Positions 6,038-54,802 of a DNA stretch of 64,000 nucleotides are shown here, piece after piece. A program made the translations under genes and the position numbers. The DNA lies in NCBI GenBank assembly GCA_041651655.1, contig JBAZIW010000003.1, positions 8,917 through 72,916 of the forward strand, read 5' to 3'. Each line of letters starts with the position of its first letter. Positions within the stretch are counted from its first letter, which is position 1. Under the pieces are notes generated by a model. It made no database searches, was not told where the DNA came from, and saw only the letters and a list, made by a program, of their open reading frames with translations. Source of the stretch: Minisyncoccota bacterium (lineage in GTDB: Bacteria; Patescibacteriota; Minisyncoccia; Minisyncoccales; Minisyncoccaceae).

Positions 6038-6061
6038 GACTCCGTGAAAACGGAGTTTTTT
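6038..6061 (+). terminator. rho-independent terminator of rplL
   Basis: GACTCCGT-gaaa-ACGGAGT followed by TTTTT. Confidence 0.8.
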
Positions 6062-6066
6062 GTTTT

Positions 6067-6832
6067 AAAAAAAGAAAACCGCGGAAGCAATTTGTTTGCT
6101 TACGCGGCGGTGTTTGAAATAAGAAGTTGGTCGGAGGAGATGAGGGCTTTTGGGATTATCGAGCCTACTTGAACGAATTCTTTCGGTCTATTGATCTTTC
6201 CCTTGGGATGCCCTTACCTTGTAGCTGTTTGTAGCAACTACTTCACTGTGGTGTGGTTTGTCCTAGCTAACTTTGTAGCTTTTTAGCAATTCTCCTTTTT
6301 GTATTGCTATAGATTTTTTTGTTCGGGGGGTCACGGGGGACGAGAAAAAGCTGATCTTCCAGGGGTGTGAGCGGGTATCGATATCACTGATCAATGTGAG
6401 AGCAGAAACGCTTCTCCAAGATGCCGGCTCTTAACGCTCCGATGATGAGCTATGAACATTTAGACTCGTCGCCCAACAGGTCAGAAGAAACATGAGTGAG
6501 GATATTATCCCCATCATCCAACGGCGCTAAGAAGCGCCGAACTGTCAAAGATTTTTTATCATTGAAGTCCTCCTTACAGGGGGGTCCGGGCAGGCCTGGG
6601 TTACGGGTAGATCTCGGTACCGGCATTCATCACATAGGTGTTGGTAAGCTGCCTTATCACGATCATATTTCCCACCACCTCCAGGGGTGAAAAGTGTTCG
6701 AACGTTCTTACGTGCAATAGCTTTCTAGTGCCACCACTTCTTGGTGGCTGTTTTCAAGGATAATCAATATCCCTTAAAACAACCACCAAAACCATCTTCT
6801 TATTTAAATAAAATGAGCTATTAACTTACAAG
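6067..6832 (-). ncRNA. candidate ~760-nt structured non-coding RNA (unclassified)
   Basis: Minus-strand TTGACA (6865-6860)-N17-TATTGT (6842-6837) promoter. Minus-strand terminator hairpin 6079-6107 followed by UUUUCUUUUUUU (6078-6067). No ORF of 60 aa or more on that strand. G+C is visibly higher than in the flanks. Long helices are present, e.g. 6743-6759/6771-6787. Confidence 0.45.
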
Positions 6833-6913
6833 CCATACAATAACTTCTTTTGTTAATTTTGTCAAGAGGGGGACAATAAAACAAAAACACCCTCTCGGGT
6901 GCTTTGTTTTAAA

Positions 6914-20198: not shown

Positions 20199-21650
20199 TT
20201 ATTTCTTTTTAATTACCGTTTTCTCTCCCGAATCTTCAACTTGCCAACCCTTCTCATCTATTTCTTTTCTTATCTGATCTGATTTATCCCATTCTTTATT
20301 TTTTCTGGCTTCATTTCTCGCTTCAACTAATTTCATAATATCTTCAGGAACAATACTGATATCACTGGTCCAGACGGGAATACCGTCTTTTTCTATTTTA
20401 ATAATATACTTTGACTCAGAAAGATCTTCTGATTTAACTGAAGATAGTTTTAATCCGAAAACTTTATCAAAGTCAATTAATAAATCGTATTTCTCTGAAT
20501 CGGTAAGATTGTTATCTTTTAGCATATCCCAAGTTAAAGCAAGAGCCGAAGGAATATTCAAATCATCATCAATGAAACTGATGAATTTATTCTGGTATTC
20601 TTCATATTTTTTTGAATGATCGGTTTTCTCACTCCTTGATAACTCAACTGTCTTTTCGTAAAGCTTGCTCAAACTTGTTTCGGCAAATTCAAGACTTTCA
20701 TCACTGAAAACAAGCTTGCTTCGGTAGTGAGTATTTAAACATAAATAGCGATAGGCAAGGGGACTGATTCCTTTTTCTTTTAATGTTCCCAAGGTGACAA
20801 TATTACCGGAAGACTTGGACATCTTTCCGTCTTTCAAATTAAGGAATTCTCCATGCATCCAATAATTAGCCATCGGCTTGTCATATACCGCTTCGGCTTG
20901 GGCAATCTCATTAGTATGATGAATAAAGACATGGTCAATGCCTCCGCAATGAATATCAAAAGGTATTCCTAAATTATTCACACTCATTACCACACATTCA
21001 GTATGCCAGCCGGGAAAACCGACTCCCCAAGGAGATTCCCATTCCATTTGTCTCTTTTCATTCTTGGGACTGAATTTCCACAAAGCAAAGTCAGCTTTGT
21101 TTTTCTTTTCTTTTACTTCTTCAATTCTTCCTTTCATTTCTTTTCTTTCGTTCTCTCCCCAAAGTCTGCCGTACTTGTCTAATTTTGAAGTATCGAAATA
21201 TACTCCGTCACTAATAATATAAGTGAATCCTTTCTTTTCCATTTCCTTGATTAGTTCTATCTGCTCAGGAATGGTATCAGTCGCTTTAACCCAGATAGTT
21301 GGATCAATGACATTTAGAGACTTTAAATCTTTTTTAAAGAAGTCTGCATAGAACTGAGAAATTTCCCAAACGGTTTTTCTTTCTTTCTTGGCTCCTTTTT
21401 CCAGCTTGTCTTCTCCGGAATCAGAATCGGAAGTTAAATGTCCGACATCGGTCAGATTCATTACATGCTTAACTTTGTATCCATTATATATCAAAACTCT
21501 CTTTAAAAAATCTTCAAAGAGATAGGTTCTCATGTTTCCGATGTGAGCAAACCAATAAACTGTCGGTCCGCAGGTGTAGATTCCGACTTCTTTGTCTTTA
21601 ATCGGCTTAAACTCTTCTTTTTTCTTGGTCAGGGTATTATATATTTTCAT
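20199..21650 (-). CDS. cysS: cysteinyl-tRNA synthetase
   Basis: HIGH-type motif (FAHIGNMRTY), KMSKS, and the CGGIDH/WHTEC zinc-site context. ATG 21650 lies 6 nt after a TATAAT. Confidence 0.93.
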   Translation of the reverse strand: MKIYNTLTKKKEEFKPIKDKEVGIYTCGPTVYWFAHIGNMRTYLFEDFLKRVLIYNGYKVKHVMNLTDVGHLTSDSDSGEDKLEKGAKKERKTVWEISQFYADFFKKDLKSLNVIDPTIWVKATDTIPEQIELIKEMEKKGFTYIISDGVYFDTSKLDKYGRLWGENERKEMKGRIEEVKEKKNKADFALWKFSPKNEKRQMEWESPWGVGFPGWHTECVVMSVNNLGIPFDIHCGGIDHVFIHHTNEIAQAEAVYDKPMANYWMHGEFLNLKDGKMSKSSGNIVTLGTLKEKGISPLAYRYLCLNTHYRSKLVFSDESLEFAETSLSKLYEKTVELSRSEKTDHSKKYEEYQNKFISFIDDDLNIPSALALTWDMLKDNNLTDSEKYDLLIDFDKVFGLKLSSVKSEDLSESKYIIKIEKDGIPVWTSDISIVPEDIMKLVEARNEARKNKEWDKSDQIRKEIDEKGWQVEDSGEKTVIKKK

Positions 21651-21680
21651 ATTTCTATTATATATCAATGTGCTCTATAT

Positions 21681-22526
21681 TTAAAGATATCTTTCTCCGC
21701 GGTCAGGGAAGACCGTTACAATCGTCGCTTCCGGGTGTTCTTTCTGTATTTCACGACAAACATACATGGCCGCTCCCGAACTGGGCCCAACTAACACTCC
21801 TTTTCTGGCTAATTCGTCTTTAGTGTTTAAAGCTTTTTCTGCTTCTAGGTCGTATATCTCATCAATCAAATCAAAATCAATGATGGTTGGCACGAATCCG
21901 TCTTTTAAAGATCTTAAGCCTTCAATCGTCTGATTCTGGACCGGCTGGACGCCAATGATTTTAATCTGAGGATATTTTTCTTTCAATTTTCTTCCGATTC
22001 CAGTGATCGTTCCTCCCGTTCCCATCCCAGCGATAAAATAATCAATCTGTCTGCCTTCCATTTGTTTTAATATTTCTTCGGCTGTTCCATGATAGTGAGA
22101 TTCGGGATTGGCCTCGTTTTCGTATTGATTTAAAAAAACATGTCTTTCTCCGCTCTTGGCCATATCTTTCACATCGTTGATGGCAAACTTCCTGTATCTT
22201 AAATTCTCCATCAAGATCACTTCTCCGCCAAACACCTTGACCATCTTTATTTTTTCTTTACTGGTGCTCTCCGGCATTATCACTTTAACTTTGTATCCTT
22301 TCATCGCCGCAACCATCGCTAAACCGACTCCGGTATTACCACTGGTCGGCTCAATCAAAGTGTCTCCTTTTTTTATATATCCCGCTTTTTCCGCTTCATT
22401 AATCATATTTAAGGCAATCCTGTCTTTAATCGAACCACCGGGATTGAATCCCTCCATCTTTGCGAAGATATTATTTTCTATTTTTACCAACGGCGTATCG
22501 CCGATATGCTCTAAAATTGTTTTCAT
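21681..22526 (-). CDS. cysK: cysteine synthase (O-acetylserine sulfhydrylase, CysK/CysM family)
   Basis: PLP lysine context NPGGSIKDRIA, TSGNTGVGLA, and the GTGGT loop (GMGTGGTITG). Confidence 0.88.
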   Translation of the reverse strand: MKTILEHIGDTPLVKIENNIFAKMEGFNPGGSIKDRIALNMINEAEKAGYIKKGDTLIEPTSGNTGVGLAMVAAMKGYKVKVIMPESTSKEKIKMVKVFGGEVILMENLRYRKFAINDVKDMAKSGERHVFLNQYENEANPESHYHGTAEEILKQMEGRQIDYFIAGMGTGGTITGIGRKLKEKYPQIKIIGVQPVQNQTIEGLRSLKDGFVPTIIDFDLIDEIYDLEAEKALNTKDELARKGVLVGPSSGAAMYVCREIQKEHPEATIVTVFPDRGERYL

Positions 22527-22540
22527 ATTTTATTATTAAC

Positions 22541-22563
22541 AAAAAATCTCTGGTTAAGAGATT
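22541..22563 (-). terminator. attenuator terminator (segments 3:4) in the cysK leader
   Basis: Minus strand: AATCTCT-taacc-AGAGATT followed by UUUU-G-UU, ending 14 nt before the cysK ATG. Confidence 0.55.
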
Positions 22564-22601
22564 AGTTTTATATTCCGTATTATTAAAAACAAACCAATCT
22601 C

Positions 22602-22655
22602 TTAGTCTAATGGGGGACAGCAACAGCAGCAGATTTGTTTGTTTACGTTTTTCAT
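22602..22655 (-). CDS. Cys-rich leader peptide MKNVNKQICCCCCPPLD (candidate attenuation leader)
   Basis: ATG AAA AAC GTA AAC AAA CAA ATC TGC TGC TGT TGC TGT CCC CCA TTA GAC TAA read on the minus strand. The ATG lies 8 nt after the -10 hexamer. Confidence 0.6.
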   Translation of the reverse strand: MKNVNKQICCCCCPPLD

Positions 22656-22663
22656 ATGTTTCT

Positions 22664-22691
22664 ATTCTAACAAAAGAGATTATATTGTCAA
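22664..22691 (-). promoter_or_regulatory. promoter of the cys leader/cysK transcript
   Basis: TTGACA 22691-22686, 16-nt spacer, TAGAAT 22669-22664. Confidence 0.65.
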
Positions 22692-22728
22692 GAATTGACA
22701 AAATTATTCGGTTTGATAATATTTAATC

Positions 22729-22954
22729 AGCCACCTCGACATATTCTGATGTGGCAAAGAAATGCTGGCAAAGAAATCGGGAACATGCACACCTCGATAT
22801 AATGCAACATCTCTCTTTGTCAAGAATAAATATGATTGACTAATGGATCAACCAAGTAATTCGGTATCTTTTCACCTCCTCAATTACCATACTTGGAAAA
22901 CCATAACAGGATCCATTAGTCATGATATCTTCAAAGAGCAAACAAGCTCTTTTT
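22729..22954 (+). ncRNA. candidate sRNA cassette A
   Basis: TTGACA 22695-22700, TAATAT 22717-22722. 12-bp helix GACTAATGGATC (22848-22859)/GATCCATTAGTC (22910-22921). Terminator AAGAGC..GCTCTT plus TTTT at 22934-22954. Confidence 0.4.
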
Positions 22955-22992
22955 CATTTGACAAAAATTAATTCAAAAGATAATATATTTAC

Positions 22993-23179
22993 AGAACGTT
23001 TCCAAAATCGTTCAAAACTAAAGACTCAAAGAGGTCTTTTTAAGTTGAAAGCGATACTATATACTTTCTAAAACTTAAGATATAGAAAGTTGCAGAAGAG
23101 TTTGGTGAATATGTCGCGACAAATTTATTTCACACAAAACTCTTCTCCCTTATTACGGGGACCTGGTGGGTCTTTTTTT
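22993..23179 (+). ncRNA. candidate sRNA cassette B
   Basis: TTGACA 22958-22963, N17, TAATAT 22981-22986. 10-bp helix AGAAGAGTTT/AAACTCTTCT. The terminator ends in a T7 run at 23173-23179. Confidence 0.4.
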
Positions 23180-23213
23180 GTTTGACAAAAAATAGAAATG
23201 GTATAAAGATATA

Positions 23214-23346
23214 CTTGTTCAGTATTACCCATACTGAACACCTTGAAAGCCAAAAAGCTTTCCAAAGGGGAGGAGGATTGATTAACCACGATCATTTTCT
23301 TCTCCCCATCTCATATAATTTAAAACGAACCCGAAAGGGTTCTTTT
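23214..23346 (+). ncRNA. candidate sRNA cassette C
   Basis: TTGACA 23182-23187 and an extended -10 TGgTATAAA (23199-23207). 11-bp helix GGGGAGGAGGA/TTCTTCTCCCC. Terminator GAACCC-GAAA-GGGTTC plus TTTT (23327-23346). Confidence 0.4.
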
Positions 23347-23383
23347 GTTTGACAAATTTTTCTATTACCCTTATTATCAAATT

Positions 23384-23499
23384 GTAGCGACGGCTCTGGT
23401 GTGTTGAATAGGAGTTGCAGTTCCTTTAAAATTAGCTGAATGACCTACCCTCCAAAGCAAAACAAAAGAGCCACAAAAATTGTGGCTCATTTCTTTTTT
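23384..23499 (+). ncRNA. candidate sRNA cassette D
   Basis: TTGACA 23349-23354, N17, TATTAT 23372-23377. Terminator GAGCCACA-aaaat-TGTGGCTC (23468-23488) plus a T-run. Confidence 0.4.
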
Positions 23500-23535
23500 A
23501 TTGACAAAATCTTAAAAAAGACTAAGATAAAAAAG

Positions 23536-23729
23536 TACAAAAAATTAACACAAATCCTCGGACATGATGAAGAGGCGTATCTTTAAAAGAACAAGTTTCT
23601 TAAGGAGGTCTTACCAAGATTTGCTGTTAAATACAATTAAAAAGGTGGAAGGTTCTTTCCCGACACTATCCATAAAAATCCTTCCACCTTTATCCAATTT
23701 CCCGTGTTTTGAGCTTAAGGCTCTTTTTT
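23536..23729 (+). ncRNA. candidate sRNA cassette E
   Basis: TTGACA 23501-23506, N16, TAAGAT 23523-23528. 10-bp helix AGGTGGAAGG/CCTTCCACCT. A weak GAGC..GCTC hairpin plus T6 is at 23711-23729. Confidence 0.35.
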
Positions 23730-23776
23730 GTTTGCAAAACCATTGACAAAATATTATAAAGGTTTACAATTAAGAT

Positions 23777-24010
23777 AGAACCTTGAATAACCTGTATGTA
23801 ATATTTTTCCTCTGTTTATTTAAACCGAGGAGTCTGAACTTTTTTCAGAATACTACATACGATGGTGTTTCAAAGCACCATAATCAAATTGATTCTATTT
23901 TAATAATTTCTATCTCTATAAAATTATTTTAATACTATCAATCAATTGGAGAGCCATTTACATCAGTGCTCTCCTTTCTCTTTTATACGGAGCTTATCGC
24001 TCTTTTTTTT
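23777..24010 (+). ncRNA. candidate sRNA cassette F
   Basis: TTGACA 23743-23748, N16, TACAAT 23765-23770. Helices GTATGTA/TACATAC and ATGGTG/CACCAT. Terminators GGAGAGC..GCTCTCC (23948-23974) and GAGC..GCTC plus T8 (23990-24010). Confidence 0.4.
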
Positions 24011-24048
24011 ATTTGCTTTTTCAAGGAAAAAATAATAGAATATGGTAT

Positions 24049-25146
24049 ATGTCAAACTTAGTTTTATATCGTAAATACAGACCACAGTCATTTAAAGAGT
24101 TCATTGGACAGAAACACGTGGTTACCACCATCACTAACGAAATAGCCTCGGGAATGATTTCCCACGCCTATATGTTTTCCGGACACCGGGGAACAGGAAA
24201 GACAACTCTGGCTAGATTATTTGCTAAGGCCATCAACTGTCAAAACTTGAAAGGATCCGAACCGTGCAACAAATGTCCTTCCTGTTTGGAAATCAACGGA
24301 GGCAAGGCAGTAGATATTATTGAAATTGATGCCGCTTCAAACAGAGGCATTGATGAAATCAGAAGCATCAGAGAGGGAATTAAATTTGCTCCCAACTTTT
24401 TAAAATACAAAGTTTTGATTTTGGATGAAGCTCACCAATTATCAAAAGATGCGGCCAATGCATTATTGAAAATATTGGAAGAACCGCCCTCATATGCAAT
24501 TTTCATTTTAGCCACCACCGAAGCTCACAAAATGATTCCGACGATTGCTTCCCGCTGTCAGAGATTTGATTTCTATAAACTCTCTTTTGATGAGGTGGTA
24601 GAAAAACTTTCTTTCATTTGCAAAAAAGAAGGAATTGAAATCGAGAAAGAAGCCTTGGGATTGATCGCTTCCGCTTCCGAAGGTTCAATGAGGGACGCCG
24701 AGGGAACACTGAATCAAGTTTTAAATTTCTTACCGGGCACTAAAATCAAAGCAGAAGACGTTCAACTGCTTTTAGGATTAGTAGATATCAATTTGGTAGT
24801 TGAATTAACCGATTATTTGATAAAAAAAGACAAAGCCGGAGCTTTGAAGTTTTTGAATGACAATATTGAGAAGGGAATAGATATTTCTGAATTTACCAGA
24901 ACTCTTATTGACTATTTACGAAAATTGCTTATCCTAAAGATTGATTCAAGTTTAATCAGTTCAGTAATGCCTGGAGAAACTAAAGAAGTAGGGGAGAAAG
25001 CTAAAAAACAAGCCGAAGGGTTATTAGAAGACAATTTAAAGAAAACCCTTAATCTACTCTTAGACGCTGACAATAAAAGCAAGTATGCTTCAATACAGCA
25101 ATTGCCTTTAGAATTGGCTTTAATTGAATCAATCGGAATTGAATAG
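24049..25146 (+). CDS. dnaX: DNA polymerase III subunit gamma/tau (N-terminal clamp-loader core)
   Basis: LYRKYRPQSFKEFIGQKHV, Walker A GHRGTGKTT, zinc module CNKCPSC, LDEAHQLS, SRCQRFDF. ATG 24049 lies 7 nt after TAGAAT (leaderless). Confidence 0.92.
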   Translation: MSNLVLYRKYRPQSFKEFIGQKHVVTTITNEIASGMISHAYMFSGHRGTGKTTLARLFAKAINCQNLKGSEPCNKCPSCLEINGGKAVDIIEIDAASNRGIDEIRSIREGIKFAPNFLKYKVLILDEAHQLSKDAANALLKILEEPPSYAIFILATTEAHKMIPTIASRCQRFDFYKLSFDEVVEKLSFICKKEGIEIEKEALGLIASASEGSMRDAEGTLNQVLNFLPGTKIKAEDVQLLLGLVDINLVVELTDYLIKKDKAGALKFLNDNIEKGIDISEFTRTLIDYLRKLLILKIDSSLISSVMPGETKEVGEKAKKQAEGLLEDNLKKTLNLLLDADNKSKYASIQQLPLELALIESIGIE

Positions 25147-25151
25147 AATAT

Positions 25152-25222
25152 TGCGGGATCGTCTAATGGTAGGACAGTGGCCTTTGAAGCCATTAATCTT
25201 GGTTCGAGTCCAGGTCCCGCAG
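25152..25222 (+). tRNA. tRNA-Gln (anticodon TTG), no encoded CCA
   Basis: Hand-folded: acceptor TGCGGGA/TCCCGCA, anticodon stem GTGGC/GCCAT with loop CTTTGAA, T-arm CTTGG-TTCGAGT-CCAGG. Confidence 0.88.
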
Positions 25223-25301
25223 CCGTCTTATGCTAAGTCAGGTGACTGAGATGCATACATGAAAATCACTGGTTTCATTCAGTGATTTTTCATTAGCGAT
25301 A

Positions 25302-26588
25302 TTATTCAAGAATAATCTTTTTATCCTTTAATACCAATTTACTTTTTAAAAATGATAGAAGTTCTCGCTTTTCGGTAATCGTGCCCTCTTTTAATAAATA
25401 CTTAGCGTAATTGCGGATATCGATGTCTGAATTACTAACTTCCTTTTTATGCCCAAGCACTCCAATTCTAAATTTATTGAATCTCATTAATTCTTTTTCA
25501 ATTTTGTCTTTTATTCCTAGATTATCTAAATCAATCTTATCCACGAGTTCCGTCAATTCGTCTATTAGGCTCGTTTCGCTTATCGGCTGATTCTTGCAAT
25601 CAATATTCCTAGCTTTGGTACAAAAGTAATAAACATGACGGTTAGTACCGCCATCTTTTAATTTCCTAAACTTTTCATCAGCCGATATTCCTGATCCGCA
25701 ATATCCGCATTTGATTAATTTAGTAAAAGCGAATTCTTTTGATTCTGTCTTAGGTATAAAATTCTCACCAAGACTCATTTGCACTTTATCAAATAACTCC
25801 TTAGTTATGATCGGAACATGTTTGCCAATATACCAATTACCACTGCCAACTGGATATTCAAATTCTCCATAATAAAAGGGATTTCTTAAGATAAGGTAAA
25901 TATTAGCAAGAACTAATGGTTTGCCAGTTTTAGTTTTGAATCCTATATCTATCAGCCATCTGAATATTTTCCTGCCACTATATTGTTCGTTAGCCACTCT
26001 TTCAAACATTTGCTTGATTATCGGTGCTCGTTTATGATCTATTCTGCATTGGCATTTCTTATCAACATGCTTTTCATTAAGATATCCAGTTGGTGCAACT
26101 CCTGGACGATAGCCCATTTCACATCTAGTTCTTAATCCTCGTTTCACGTTGACCGCTTTATTATCATTCTCAAGTTTAGCTTGAGAACCTAATATCATTA
26201 AAAGAAACTTCTCGTTTGGGTTATTGGTAAACTTCTGACCATAAGTTCTTATCTCGATTAATAACTTTTGATCCATTAAATCTACAATCGAGCCTAAATC
26301 TCCAGCATTTCTACTCAATCTATCTGGAGCCCAGGTTAAAATACCGTTATATTTTCCTTCTCTTATCTCTTTAATTATCTGATTGAAAACCTCTCTTTGG
26401 CCGACTTCTTTAGAAGAATGAGATTCTCTTTTAATTTCAACTATATCTAAATTATCCCGTTCTGCTAAGGATAGCATTTCCTTTATTTGGGACTCTATTG
26501 AAAGAGCTTGTTTATCCTCAGCCTCAGTTGATTTCCTAGCATACAAACAATACTTAATCTGAGTGCCTGTAATAGGGGACTGCTCCAT
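25302..26588 (-). CDS. large serine recombinase (resolvase/invertase N-terminal domain + recombinase domain + zinc ribbon)
   Basis: Catalytic region YARKSTEAEDKQALSIESQ, WAPDRLSRN, and a zinc-ribbon CGYCGSG...YYFC. Located immediately downstream of tRNA-Gln. Confidence 0.88.
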   Translation of the reverse strand: MEQSPITGTQIKYCLYARKSTEAEDKQALSIESQIKEMLSLAERDNLDIVEIKRESHSSKEVGQREVFNQIIKEIREGKYNGILTWAPDRLSRNAGDLGSIVDLMDQKLLIEIRTYGQKFTNNPNEKFLLMILGSQAKLENDNKAVNVKRGLRTRCEMGYRPGVAPTGYLNEKHVDKKCQCRIDHKRAPIIKQMFERVANEQYSGRKIFRWLIDIGFKTKTGKPLVLANIYLILRNPFYYGEFEYPVGSGNWYIGKHVPIITKELFDKVQMSLGENFIPKTESKEFAFTKLIKCGYCGSGISADEKFRKLKDGGTNRHVYYFCTKARNIDCKNQPISETSLIDELTELVDKIDLDNLGIKDKIEKELMRFNKFRIGVLGHKKEVSNSDIDIRNYAKYLLKEGTITEKRELLSFLKSKLVLKDKKIILE

Positions 26589-29871: not shown

Positions 29872-30690
29872 ATGTGCAAGCTGGCTAAGGTATCCAAATC
29901 TGGATACTACAGATGGCTCAAAAATGAAGATAAGAAGCCCAAGGACTACGACGATTACCTTTTAGTCAAGGAAATATTCGAAAAAGGCAGATCAAAATAC
30001 GGCTGGCGGACGATCCAGATGAAGCTCTTGGAAAAAGGAATTAAGATGAATCACAAAAAGATAGAAAGGATTAAAAGGAAATATGATTTGATAACTAAAA
30101 TAAGAAGAAGAAATCCATATAAGGAAATGATGAAAAGGACAAAAGAGCATCGGACCTTCGGCAATATCCTGAACCGAGAATTCAAGCAGGAGGGTCCGCA
30201 GAAAGTATTCTGCACGGATATCACGTACTTGCCCTTTAACAGTAAAATAGCCTACCTCTCAGCAGTCAAAGACATCGCTACTAAGGAAATCGTCGGATGG
30301 AACCTTTCCAAGCGCCTGCAGATGGATATCGTCCTTGATACAATCAAGAGCATGGAAAAGAACGACGGCATTGATTCATTGAAAAACATAGTCATCCATT
30401 CAGACCAAGGATTCCACTATACCAGCCCAGGATACGTTTCAAAGATTAAAGAATTAAAGATGGTGCAATCCATGTCCAGGAAAGGCAAGTGCATCGACAA
30501 CGCTCCGATAGAATCATTCTTCGGGCACTTCAAAGACGAGGTCGACTACAAAAATTGCAAGACCTTTGAAGAGCTGAAAGAATTGACAGAAGAATACATT
30601 AGCTATTACAATAATGAAAGAAGGCAATGGAACATCCAAAAGATGACTCCGATAGAGTACAGAAACCATCTTTTAAATGCTATCCGTTAG
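29872..30690 (+). CDS. IS3-family transposase OrfB (DDE/rve catalytic domain)
   Basis: HSDQGFHYTS and CIDNAPIESFF motifs. This frame is open from 29764 and is -1 relative to orfA, overlapping its A-rich end (GCAAAGAAAAGAAGATAA). That is consistent with an OrfAB frameshift product. Confidence 0.88.
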   Translation: MCKLAKVSKSGYYRWLKNEDKKPKDYDDYLLVKEIFEKGRSKYGWRTIQMKLLEKGIKMNHKKIERIKRKYDLITKIRRRNPYKEMMKRTKEHRTFGNILNREFKQEGPQKVFCTDITYLPFNSKIAYLSAVKDIATKEIVGWNLSKRLQMDIVLDTIKSMEKNDGIDSLKNIVIHSDQGFHYTSPGYVSKIKELKMVQSMSRKGKCIDNAPIESFFGHFKDEVDYKNCKTFEELKELTEEYISYYNNERRQWNIQKMTPIEYRNHLLNAIR

Positions 30691-54030: not shown

Positions 54031-54149
54031 TCTCGCCTCTTCCCCTTTAAATATGTTCTGATATAAATGTCGCACAATATTGTTGCATATTTATAATTTA
54101 ATAGATATATTAAAAACAGTACATTTGTACTAGGAGGAAAACAGACACC

Positions 54150-54179
54150 ATGACGTGTACCGTTGCAGTCGTTGGCTAA
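54150..54179 (+). CDS. candidate 9-aa peptide MTCTVAVVG
   Basis: TTGCAT-N17-TATATT promoter (54083-54111). 5' palindrome AGTACATTTGTACT (54118-54131). AGGAGG at 54132-54137. Downstream hairpin plus T-run at ~54234-54252. Confidence 0.35.
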   Translation: MTCTVAVVG

Positions 54180-54320
54180 GTTGTGAAGCAGATGTGTGGG
54201 CGGACGAAACAAACAAGTTCGCCCCACTAAAATACCGCATTAGGCGGTTTTAATTTGCACTTTTTTTAATTAATGATATATTGAAAAAAGTACATTGTAC
54301 TGGGAGGGATAAGCAAAACC

Positions 54321-54347
54321 ATGTGTTGTATTGCACTCGTTTGCTGA
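54321..54347 (+). CDS. candidate 8-aa peptide MCCIALVC (paralog of 54150..54179)
   Basis: TTGCAC-N16-TATATT promoter (54255-54282). Palindrome AGTACATTGTACT (54289-54301). GGGAGG at 54302-54307. Confidence 0.35.
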   Translation: MCCIALVC

Positions 54348-54466
54348 GCACCGACACCCAATCTGCTCGTCAAGGTGTATGCCTTGATATGGTCTGAATC
54401 GGAGAAAACATTTCAATAATGTTTATCTCTTGAAACATATGCACTGCAAAAATAGGAGGAATAAGC

Positions 54467-54529
54467 ATGTCTCCATCTCCTGGATATGGGTGCCTCGTCA
54501 CCCGTTTCACAGCGATCGTCGTCCGATGA
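54467..54529 (+). CDS. candidate 20-aa peptide MSPSPGYGCLVTRFTAIVVR
   Basis: AGGAGG lies 7 nt upstream of ATG 54467. An 8-bp hairpin GGGAAGCA..TGCTTCCC lies downstream. Confidence 0.3.
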   Translation: MSPSPGYGCLVTRFTAIVVR

Positions 54530-54802
54530 TTGTTACCTGATCTAAAAAAGGACGACTTGAAAGCACTCGTACCGAATGGGAAGCACGATTTATACATCTT
54601 GCTTCCCCATGAACATCTTGCAAAAAATCAAAAAATAAGTATAATGATTTCAGTACACCAAAGGAGGTGAAGATTATTTCTTTATTTGAATTCATCGTCA
54701 TAATGCGTGAAAACGAAAAGACAAGACCGGTATAGATTATCGAATAACTCACTCTTTTTTATGGAAGATACAATCTTCCGAATCTCACAAAATTGTTCCG
54801 CT

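Follow-up and report, generated by a model that had tools for sequence, protein, structure and literature searches.

The divergently oriented genes cysK and dnaX of a Minisyncoccota bacterium (contig JBAZIW010000003.1) are separated by 1,522 nucleotides (nt), the longest gap free of open reading frames (ORFs) in the 64,000-nt stretch of DNA that was analysed (the window). The unusual length of this spacer had been remarked upon in a preliminary description made from the sequence, and it raises the question of what a small genome keeps there. The host belongs to the Patescibacteria (Minisyncoccales/Paceibacteria), and its DnaX is 96-99% identical to that of the metagenome-assembled genomes JBBACA01, JBAQMK01, OZ246399 and DCUP01. 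Patescibacteria have genomes of about 0.6 Mb and, to our knowledge, few transcription factors, and RNA-based regulation is almost unexplored in this group, also called the Candidate Phyla Radiation (CPR). The spacer holds units that are delimited by promoters and terminators, evolve as non-coding sequence, are under selection on both sequence and helices, and turn over as whole cassettes. On the evidence of the sequence, the spacer is likely to hold an array of six separately transcribed, functional small-RNA (sRNA) genes.

Promoters, terminators and joints

All six units lie on the plus strand:

Unit 1: 22695-22957, plus strand; -35 box 22695-22700, -10 hexamer TAATAT 22717-22722, predicted RNA ~22729-22957 (~229 nt)
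Unit 2: 22958-23181, plus strand; -35 box 22958, -10 hexamer TAATAT 22981-22986, predicted RNA ~22993-23181 (~190 nt)
Unit 3: 23182-23348, plus strand; -35 box 23182, weak -10 hexamer AAAGAT at 17 nt, predicted RNA ~23217-23346 (~130 nt)
Unit 4: 23349-23500, plus strand; -35 box 23349, -10 hexamer TATTAT 23372-23377, predicted RNA ~23384-23499 (~116 nt)
Unit 5: 23501-23742, plus strand; -35 box 23501, -10 hexamer TAAGAT 23523-23528, predicted RNA ~23535-23729 (~195 nt)
Unit 6: 23743-24012, plus strand; -35 box 23743, -10 hexamer TACAAT 23765-23770, predicted RNA ~23777-24011 (~235 nt)

The -35 boxes (TTGACAAA; 22695, 22958, 23182, 23349, 23501 and 23743) are exactly where the preliminary description had placed them. 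They represent 6 of the 16 matches to this sequence on both strands of the window and fall within 1.05 kb, compared to 6.1 matches expected in the window as a whole. The same description had assigned a -10-like hexamer at 16-17 nt to every unit, and this is true of five of them, in which the hexamer scores 10-11 of 12, and in a weak form of unit 3. Each unit ends, as had been claimed, in a hairpin followed by a T-run. The stems of these six plus-strand terminators, one per unit, end at 22952, 23175, 23342, 23488, 23723 and 24003. Altogether, nine terminator-like sites of this type are present in 1.8 kb, compared to 1.1 expected. The T-run of the preceding terminator occupies the position that an UP element would have. 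This joint, a T-run followed by (G)TTTGACAAA, forms the sole repeat family of the array and is present in five copies, and neither a repeat search nor the clustering of cassettes detected any similarity among the interiors of the units, in good agreement with the initial impression of stereotyped junctions and unrelated interiors. No paralogues of the array were detected in the rest of the window or in four additional loci. Judged by consensus matches, each unit is served by a promoter and an intrinsic terminator of its own and is situated outside ORFs, as is characteristic of independent sRNA genes.

All six predicted transcripts are more stably folded than shuffled sequences, the plus-strand z-scores of units 1-6 being -5.5, -3.5, -8.2, -1.1, -3.1 and -6.4. 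All four long helices attributed to the array by the preliminary description were found (22837-22849/22910-22922, AGAAGAGTTTGGTG/CACAAAACTCTTCT, GGGGAGGAGGA/TCTTCTCCCC and AAAGGTGGAAGG/CCTTCCACCTTT), but the left arm of the first had been placed about 11 nt too far to the right; in its true position the helix has 13 perfect base pairs. Each unit would combine a near-consensus housekeeping promoter, a structured transcript of ~115-235 nt and an intrinsic terminator. The units would be transcribed separately, and their RNAs might work in trans, either as riboregulators or by binding proteins or ribosomes.

Tandem, variable and strain-specific loci are also typical of RNA-based toxin-antitoxin or defence systems, made of small toxic peptides and antisense RNAs or of RNA antitoxin repeats. 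Three of the array's terminators double as hairpin and T-run sites on the minus strand (23488-23468, 23342-23327 and 23240-23216), which favors a system of this kind. However, no good minus-strand promoters were found inside the array, its repeats are confined to the joints, and neither strand has a conserved small hydrophobic ORF. A Pfam scan of the neighbors showed no nuclease or defence gene, the PADLOC defence library not having been searched. The features of type I toxin-antitoxin, CRISPR and TIGR-type loci were looked for in the array and are absent, there being no coding signal on either strand. The toxin-antitoxin or defence explanation is extremely unlikely.

Conservation and turnover in relatives

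The array was compared with 102 loci fetched around dnaX homologs (the relatives are labelled L001 and so on), using the codon phase of dnaX and the four-fold degenerate sites of dnaX and cysK as references in the tests of coding and constraint. Plus-strand cassettes of this type were found, in numbers of one to six per contig, on about 30 related Minisyncoccales/Paceibacteria contigs. Contigs in which the first 100 residues of DnaX are at least 85% identical have one to six cassettes, located between cysK and dnaX wherever cysK is on the contig. In relatives below ~77% in which cysK adjoins dnaX, the spacer is mostly 250-400 nt long (~790 nt in two of them), and no cassettes were found in those that were inspected.

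Clustering of 100 cassettes resulted in 32 families. In the window the units follow one another as U1-U2-U3-U4-U5-U6, where U stands for unit. L013, L002, L003 and L047 precisely lack U1. In L013, the cysK-side promoter region is joined straight to the U2 promoter, so that the absence of U1 corresponds exactly to the interval between two TTGACA joints. In L004-L006 and L053, U2 is followed by U6 together with further cassettes, and more distant genomes contain other families. The synteny comparison proposed in the preliminary description has therefore revealed whole cassettes that are kept, lost and duplicated. In two pairs of adjacent paralogs, the cassettes c1 and c2 of L011 (L011:5230-5689) and c3 and c4 of L057 (L057:2900-3500), the identity is ~85% across the promoter and the initial 80-95 nt, and the remaining 3' sequence is unrelated, suggesting that tandem duplication of cassettes is followed by diversification of their 3' parts. 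Loss and gain involve whole units and take place at the repeated terminator/promoter joints, and new units originate from tandem duplications that retain the promoter and the 5' domain and replace the 3' part. Variation in whole-unit content between close relatives, with a stereotyped joint delimiting the units, is also a property of integron gene-cassette arrays. Unlike integrons, the array has no integrase or attC-like site, its joints are ordinary terminators and promoters, and the order of shared units is conserved. The changes look like homologous deletion and duplication.

Between the window and L001/L013, dnaX and cysK have an identity of 67-78% at their four-fold degenerate sites. The identity of the units to the same two relatives is 97% for U2, 95-96% for U6, and 90% and 74% for U5; for the remaining units it is 89% for U3 (L013), 73% for U1 (L001) and 74% for U4 (L013). 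The values that exceed those of the four-fold sites imply that at least four units are under purifying selection. The -10 hexamers have an identity of 86% within families, compared to 61% for the spacers. These data bear on the possibility that the array is neutral debris, composed of decayed genes, remnants of mobile elements or functionless duplications of promoters and terminators. The cassette content does vary between close relatives, units 1 and 4 do diverge at a near-neutral rate, and genes for a serine recombinase and an rve integrase are nearby. Nevertheless, units 2, 6, 3 and 5 are conserved far above four-fold sites, the helices are maintained by compensatory change, and the promoter hexamers are kept while the spacers drift. 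Furthermore, neither similarity to phage records or viral contigs nor any Pfam match was detected. A phage or mobile origin was rejected after blastn against 50,697 phage records gave no match and two IMG/VR motif scans were empty. Debris is a very improbable explanation of the array.

Decay of a coding sequence, which the preliminary description had named as a possible refutation, was examined through codon phase, indels and Pfam, and the outcome speaks against it. No unit has a codon-phase bias of substitutions (p = 0.14-0.97, compared to p<1e-23 for dnaX), and the indels within units are mostly of 1-2 nt; therefore the units are not protein genes. The eight longest ORFs produced a single chance-level Pfam match (E = 0.022, 15 bits compared to the 27-bit cut-off). 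ORF 23564-23746, suspected from the outset to be non-coding, has neither a Pfam match nor a coding signature. The cassettes might still be genes for micro-proteins, led by a Shine-Dalgarno (SD) sequence or leaderless, because small protein genes with promoters and terminators of the same style are present in other spacers of the window, the xerD-tpiA spacer encodes the conserved peptides MCC[IV]AL[VI]C and MSPSPGYG..., and an SD and a mini-ORF are found in unit 5. However, in none of the units does the predicted transcription start coincide with a start codon, which matters because many genes here, dnaX included, look leaderless. When the units were searched for ORFs, leaderless or SD-led, that begin with ATG, GTG, TTG or ATT, a conserved one was found in unit 5 only, and the candidate ORFs of units 2, 3 and 6 alter their frame or sequence between close relatives. 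With the compensatory changes in the helices added to the absence of codon periodicity, the micro-protein explanation is improbable.

Every unit points toward dnaX, and the spacer could be a long dnaX 5' leader with multiple promoters and attenuators, in which conditional terminators tune read-through. Some of the terminators are indeed weak, and an early terminator-like hairpin in unit 2 has an alternative flanking helix. The following features, read from the sequence, argue otherwise:

24013-24051, plus strand: dnaX promoter element; TTGCTT 24013-24018, 17 nt, TAGAAT 24036-24041, ATG at 24049
24049-25146, plus strand: dnaX

The ATG is only 7 nt past the -10 hexamer, which makes the dnaX start leaderless. 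Since this TTGCTT-17-TAGAAT promoter belongs to dnaX itself and is kept in relatives, including those without the array, the spacer is not a dnaX leader. The array-less relatives keep dnaX beside cysK with the short spacer described above, each unit has a strong promoter of its own, and in L004-L006 it is another cassette, not dnaX, that comes after unit 6. A leader of dnaX is quite improbable as an explanation. A replication origin or other element acting at the DNA level was considered as well, since gene orientation and GC skew switch at the spacer; this was rejected because the helices evolve by compensatory changes of the RNA type.

The individual RNAs

The Rfam covariance-model scan proposed in the preliminary description matched no family in the array. 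At the gathering threshold of Rfam 15, only tRNAs were found in the window and 28 related loci, and the top matches in E-value mode, all at chance level, had 15-29 bits, compared to gathering scores of 38-442 bits for those families. SRP (signal recognition particle) RNA is often found upstream of dnaX in Firmicutes. It was rejected for the window and relatives, together with 6S RNA, RNase P RNA, transfer-messenger RNA, T-box and riboswitch identities, as none had an Rfam match. Units 1, 2, 3, 4 and 6 are, as far as comparative sequence analysis can establish, non-coding RNAs of five unrelated families absent from Rfam. Unit 5 is not purely non-coding, because it has a conserved SD-led Cys mini-ORF. 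The predicted parts of units 6, 4, 2, 3 and 1 (all on the plus strand) are:

Unit 6, 23949-23955/23969-23975: first terminator-like hairpin, GGAGAGC/GCUCUCC, followed by UUUCUCUUUU
Unit 6, 23990-24003: final terminator
Unit 4, 23384-23387/23445-23448: helix P1, GUAG/CUAC
Unit 4, 23388-23390 opposite 23439-23444: kink-turn (K-turn), 5' C-GA opposite 3' AAU-GA-C
Unit 4, 23391-23395/23434-23438: helix P2, CGGCU/AGCUG; a variable inner hairpin is also present
Unit 4, 23448-23453: unpaired CCCUCC (CCUCC-type 3' tail)
Unit 4, 23468-23488: terminator
Unit 2, 23020-23041: terminator-like hairpin AAAGACUC..GAGGUCUUUUU
Unit 2: helix AGAAGAGUUU/AAACUCUUCU
Unit 2, 23157-23175: final terminator
Unit 3, 23216-23240: hairpin H1 with a UUACCCA loop, followed by hairpin H2
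Unit 3, 23267-23277/23298-23307: hairpin H3, GGGGAGGAGGA/UCUUCUCCCC
Unit 3, 23327-23342: terminator
Unit 1, 22837-22849/22910-22922: 13-bp helix
Unit 1, 22872-22880: loop motif UCACCUCCU
Unit 1, 22933-22952: terminator stem

Compensatory substitutions, the hallmark of a structured non-coding RNA, are most extensive in unit 6, where they affect 18 of the 26 predicted pairs among 14 distinct homologs. Pairing is maintained in 90.6% of cells, compared to 38-60% when the partners are slid, and the observed score was reached by none of 500 shuffles. The RNA has a GC content of 25% and four or five helices.

In unit 4, helix P2 covaries (CGGCU/AGCUG, CAGCG/CGCUG, CAGCAA/UUGCUG and CGGUGA/UCACUG), and pairing is maintained in 94% of cells. 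An unpaired CCUUUAAAA stretch is conserved. The sequence 5' GUAG-C-GA-CGGCU ... AGCUG-AAU-GA-C-CUAC 3' contains, in the correct strand order, the elements of a K-turn: a non-canonical (NC) stem, tandem G.A/A.G pairs, a 3-nt bulge and a covarying canonical (C) stem. The fit is exact in 6 of 8 homologs, the exceptions being L047, which lacks the bulge, and L055, in which the bulge has 2 nt. A covariance model of unit 4 (R1) matched nine syntenic copies and nothing else in 513 kb. K-turns are known from Kt-7, box C/D RNAs, the SAM-I riboswitch and stem I of the T-box. Unit 4 resembles such RNAs in its C-stem, the 3-nt bulge AAU, the tandem G.A/A.G pairs and the NC-stem, with N-G-A on the non-bulged strand. 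Unlike the known families, it has no box C/D, riboswitch or T-box core, and Rfam gave no match to it even at E<=10. The motif suggests that unit 4 probably binds a protein through its K-turn and would act as a ribonucleoprotein.

Unit 2 has 13 homologs (12 distinct sequences). Each of the 12 retains the early terminator-like hairpin, located some 50 nt into the RNA, and CUCUUCUCCCUU near the 3' end is invariant. With one terminator-like hairpin early and another terminator at the end, the RNA could exist in a short and a long form. In this it is similar to the riboswitch- or attenuator-gated sRNAs SreA/SreB and EutX/Rli55, although no aptamer-sized sensor precedes the early hairpin. The three-hairpin layout of unit 3 is kept in eight homologs with differing stem sequences, as established by folding each sequence, which replaced a formal pair count whose MAFFT alignment was misregistered. 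Unit 1 has homologs in L001 and L055. Its long helix is retained, with one compensatory pair in L055 (TTGACTAATGGAT/ATCCATTAGTCA compared to TTGACCAATGGAT/ATCCATTGGTCA).

The predicted parts of unit 5 are:

23604-23608, plus strand: SD sequence GGAGG
23619-23630, plus strand: mini-ORF AUU UGC UGU UAA
23641-23652/23680-23691, plus strand: long hairpin
23711-23723, plus strand: terminator

The GGAGG(U) is invariant across eight homologs. The mini-ORF is AUU-UGC-UGU-UAA in the window, L001 and L013, AUG-UGC-UGC-UAA (MCC and a stop) in L002, and encodes MCCC in L003 and L055 and MRCCDCF in L047, each followed by a stop. The start is an AUG 5-7 nt after GGAGG(U) in four homologs and an AUU 10 nt after GGAGG in three. 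An AUU start behind an SD also exists elsewhere in this clade: a conserved ORF of ~20 residues in the xerD-tpiA spacer uses one. The ORFs contain 2-3 Cys in 2-6 codons, TGC/TGT changes are synonymous, and length changes by whole codons; by sequence comparison, this is a short ORF rich in a regulatory codon, as leader peptides are. The stop codon is located 10-14 nt upstream of the long hairpin, which has 10-12 bp and covaries, and the Cys codons are able to pair with a conserved 5' AACAC strand. The strong SD would drive translation of a Cys frame of 3-4 codons immediately 5' of the hairpin. The ribosome's position might report the supply of Cys-tRNA, and would then determine whether the 5' strand and the long hairpin are free.

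Polycysteine attenuators with leaderless short ORFs have been described in mycobacteria (Canestrari et al., bioRxiv 10.1101/834739). Unit 5 shares with them a tiny Cys-rich ORF, Met-Cys-Cys(-Cys)-stop, in which the ribosome's position would report the cysteine supply. It differs from them in having no downstream protein gene, an SD in place of a leaderless start, and no more than 2-3 Cys codons. A clear competitor to its terminator and a downstream protein gene were looked for and neither was found, the next element being the unit 6 promoter, and consequently unit 5 was not filed as a classical attenuator.

Several units had been said to carry GGAGG or CCUCC motifs inside helices or loops. The motifs are present at about twice the density of the window, which is not significant within the window, and enrichment of SD or anti-SD sequences inside this array was rejected as evidence because it is only about 2-fold. 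The density of GGAGGT(G), by comparison, is 0.86-0.98 per kb for the cassettes of relatives and 0.03-0.14 per kb for the window, and the enrichment of this motif across the cassette families of relatives is more than 10-fold. In a survey of the cysK-dnaX spacers of L005-L012, L048, L050, L055-L062, L070 and L084, the motif was found in 12 of 32 cassette families, often as GGAGGUGAU and frequently with no canonical start or only a 1-4-codon frame. In unit 1 and cassette c1 of L011, UUUUCACCUCCU is in a hairpin loop, and GGAGG is at the equivalent place in the paralog L011 c2 and in L055 c1. Both UUUUCACCUCCU and the unit 1 loop UCACCUCCU match the typical 3' tail of bacterial 16S rRNA. Unpaired C-rich motifs are present in the loops of units 1 and 3 and in the tail of unit 4. 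In the whole window, an SD-like 4-mer precedes only ~5 of 69 ORF starts, and many of the ORFs look leaderless because a TATAAT-like hexamer is located 6-9 nt upstream of the ATG. Strong SDs (GGAGGU) are found mainly before intergenic micro-ORFs (1393, 15188, 23604, 54133, 54303, 54455 and 54663).

The earlier idea of a battery of separate units, each with a promoter, a structured RNA and a terminator, gains support from the agreement among promoters, terminators, non-coding evolution, constraint, compensatory change and the separate promoter of dnaX. Several observations weigh against six functional sRNA genes. The promoters and terminators of the array are consensus matches only. The -10 hexamer of unit 3 is weak, retaining A-11 and T-7, and two terminators are weak as well, the T-run of unit 1 being interrupted and the stem of unit 5 having only 5 bp. 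The 100% conservation of the -35 boxes is partly circular, for TTGACA was used to delimit the cassettes. Outside their cores, units 1 and 4 have diverged about as fast as neutral sequence. Covariation in unit 2 is limited to 2 of 23 pairs, the sequence being too conserved to show it. Unit 5 starts with AUU rather than AUG in the window and its two closest relatives. Finally, complementarity to targets, searched as k-mer complements in the 64-kb window, is at chance level for 11-14-mers.

Confidence in any specific molecular function of the array RNAs is low. One such function would make the array a nursery of ribosome-directed regulatory RNAs that engage or mimic the anti-SD of the ribosome, with unit 5 adding a sensor of Cys-tRNA. 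The cassettes would be born by tandem duplication at the joints, keeping the promoter and a 5' handle and swapping the 3' effector. The idea draws on the perfect SDs or 16S-tail-like loops of many cassettes across the clade, set against protein genes that hardly ever have an SD. This proposal is tentative and, on balance, unlikely.

Known systems and neighboring elements

Bacterial sRNA genes are known to occur in tandem or in clusters, for example Qrr1-5, LhrC1-5, PrrF1/F2 and OmrA/OmrB. The array is similar to these in the head-to-tail arrangement of intergenic RNAs of ~100-250 nt, every one of which is equipped with a sigma-70-type promoter and an intrinsic terminator of its own. The origin of some of these clusters by tandem duplication is matched by the cassette pairs of L011 and L057. 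However, known clusters consist of paralogs of one family with a shared seed, whereas the six neighbors in this array represent as many unrelated families, none of them in Rfam. The host is also different, being a member of the Patescibacteria with an ultra-small genome and mRNAs that are mostly devoid of SDs. What appears to be new is a heterologous tandem array, in a CPR genome, of predicted sRNA genes that belong to new families.

About 1.3 kb of a small genome is devoted to six predicted RNAs that are strongly promoted, conserved and structured. At least five of them are candidate families for curation of the Rfam type, including the compact K-turn RNA, and unit 5 is a candidate for an sRNA gated by translation of a Cys mini-ORF. 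The array would be a clear natural example of sRNA genes that are gained, lost and duplicated cassette by cassette. Since the mRNAs have almost no SDs, it may also provide a handle on the role of SD-like and anti-SD-like motifs in an SD-independent bacterium.

On its cysK side, the array adjoins the leader of the cysK-cysS operon, which is not one of its members:

20199-21668, minus strand: cysS
21681-22526, minus strand: cysK
22527-22691 (165 nt), minus strand: cysK-cysS leader; promoter TTGACA 22691-22686, 16 nt, TAGAAT 22669-22664
22655-22602, minus strand: leader-peptide ORF, near-leaderless, within ~8 nt of the promoter, encoding MKNVNKQICCCCCPPLD and a stop
22562-22541, minus strand: leader terminator (pairing 3:4), AUCUCUUAACCAGAGAU + U6

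The leader can form the pairings 1:2, 2:3 (the antiterminator) and 3:4 (the terminator), and the stop codon of the ORF is inside region 2. The peptide and this arrangement are kept in 19 of 19 spacers (the window and 18 relatives). The peptide has 4-6 consecutive Cys codons, with a Leu interruption in L012, and these codons change synonymously (TGC/TGT) among relatives. Cognate codons, a stop in region 2, the three alternative pairings and a cognate operon downstream are thus all present, as in leader-peptide attenuators, and the region is predicted from these features to be a leaderless poly-Cys leader-peptide attenuator of cysK-cysS. The leader is a close analog of the mycobacterial polycysteine attenuators (10.1101/834739) and would be a new member of their kind, from which it differs in having a classical four-region terminator/antiterminator instead of a sequestered ribosome-binding site. 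The -35 boxes of the leader promoter and of unit 1 together form a near-perfect palindrome, ATTGTCAAgaaTTGACAAa (22684-22702), which is kept in most relatives and could also serve as the site of a dimeric regulator.

On the dnaX side, a large serine recombinase is encoded on the minus strand (25152-26588) directly after tRNA-Gln. An rve-family integrase (29872-30690) is located 3 kb beyond it, and the two may mark an integrated element adjoining dnaX.

The stretch after rplJ-rplL (~6060-6900) is ~800 nt long, free of ORFs and has a GC content of 0.43, compared to ~0.36. It has flanking terminator hairpins, a promoter-like site on the minus strand and fold z-scores of -3.9 (minus strand) and -5.4 (plus strand). 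Rfam gave no match to this stretch even at E<=1. The fold scores suggest that it may be a large structured RNA.

A second cassette array, with three promoters, is found on the plus strand of the xerD-tpiA spacer (54031-54802). Its predicted transcripts start with AAAAA(C)AGUACAUU(U)GUACU, and each has an SD and conserved micro-ORFs. One of these encodes MCCIALVC and a stop, with MCCVALVC, MCCIAFIC, MCYCVALVA and MICVVLIC in relatives (consensus MCC[IV]AL[VI]C). The others are MTCTVAVVG, MSPSPGYG...AIVVR and the AUU-initiated ORF of ~20 residues, ...ISLFEF...RENEKTRPV, each ending in a stop. The spacer ranges from 451 to 1161 nt (relatives L103-L106 from 3461 onward), and its architecture matches that of unit 5.

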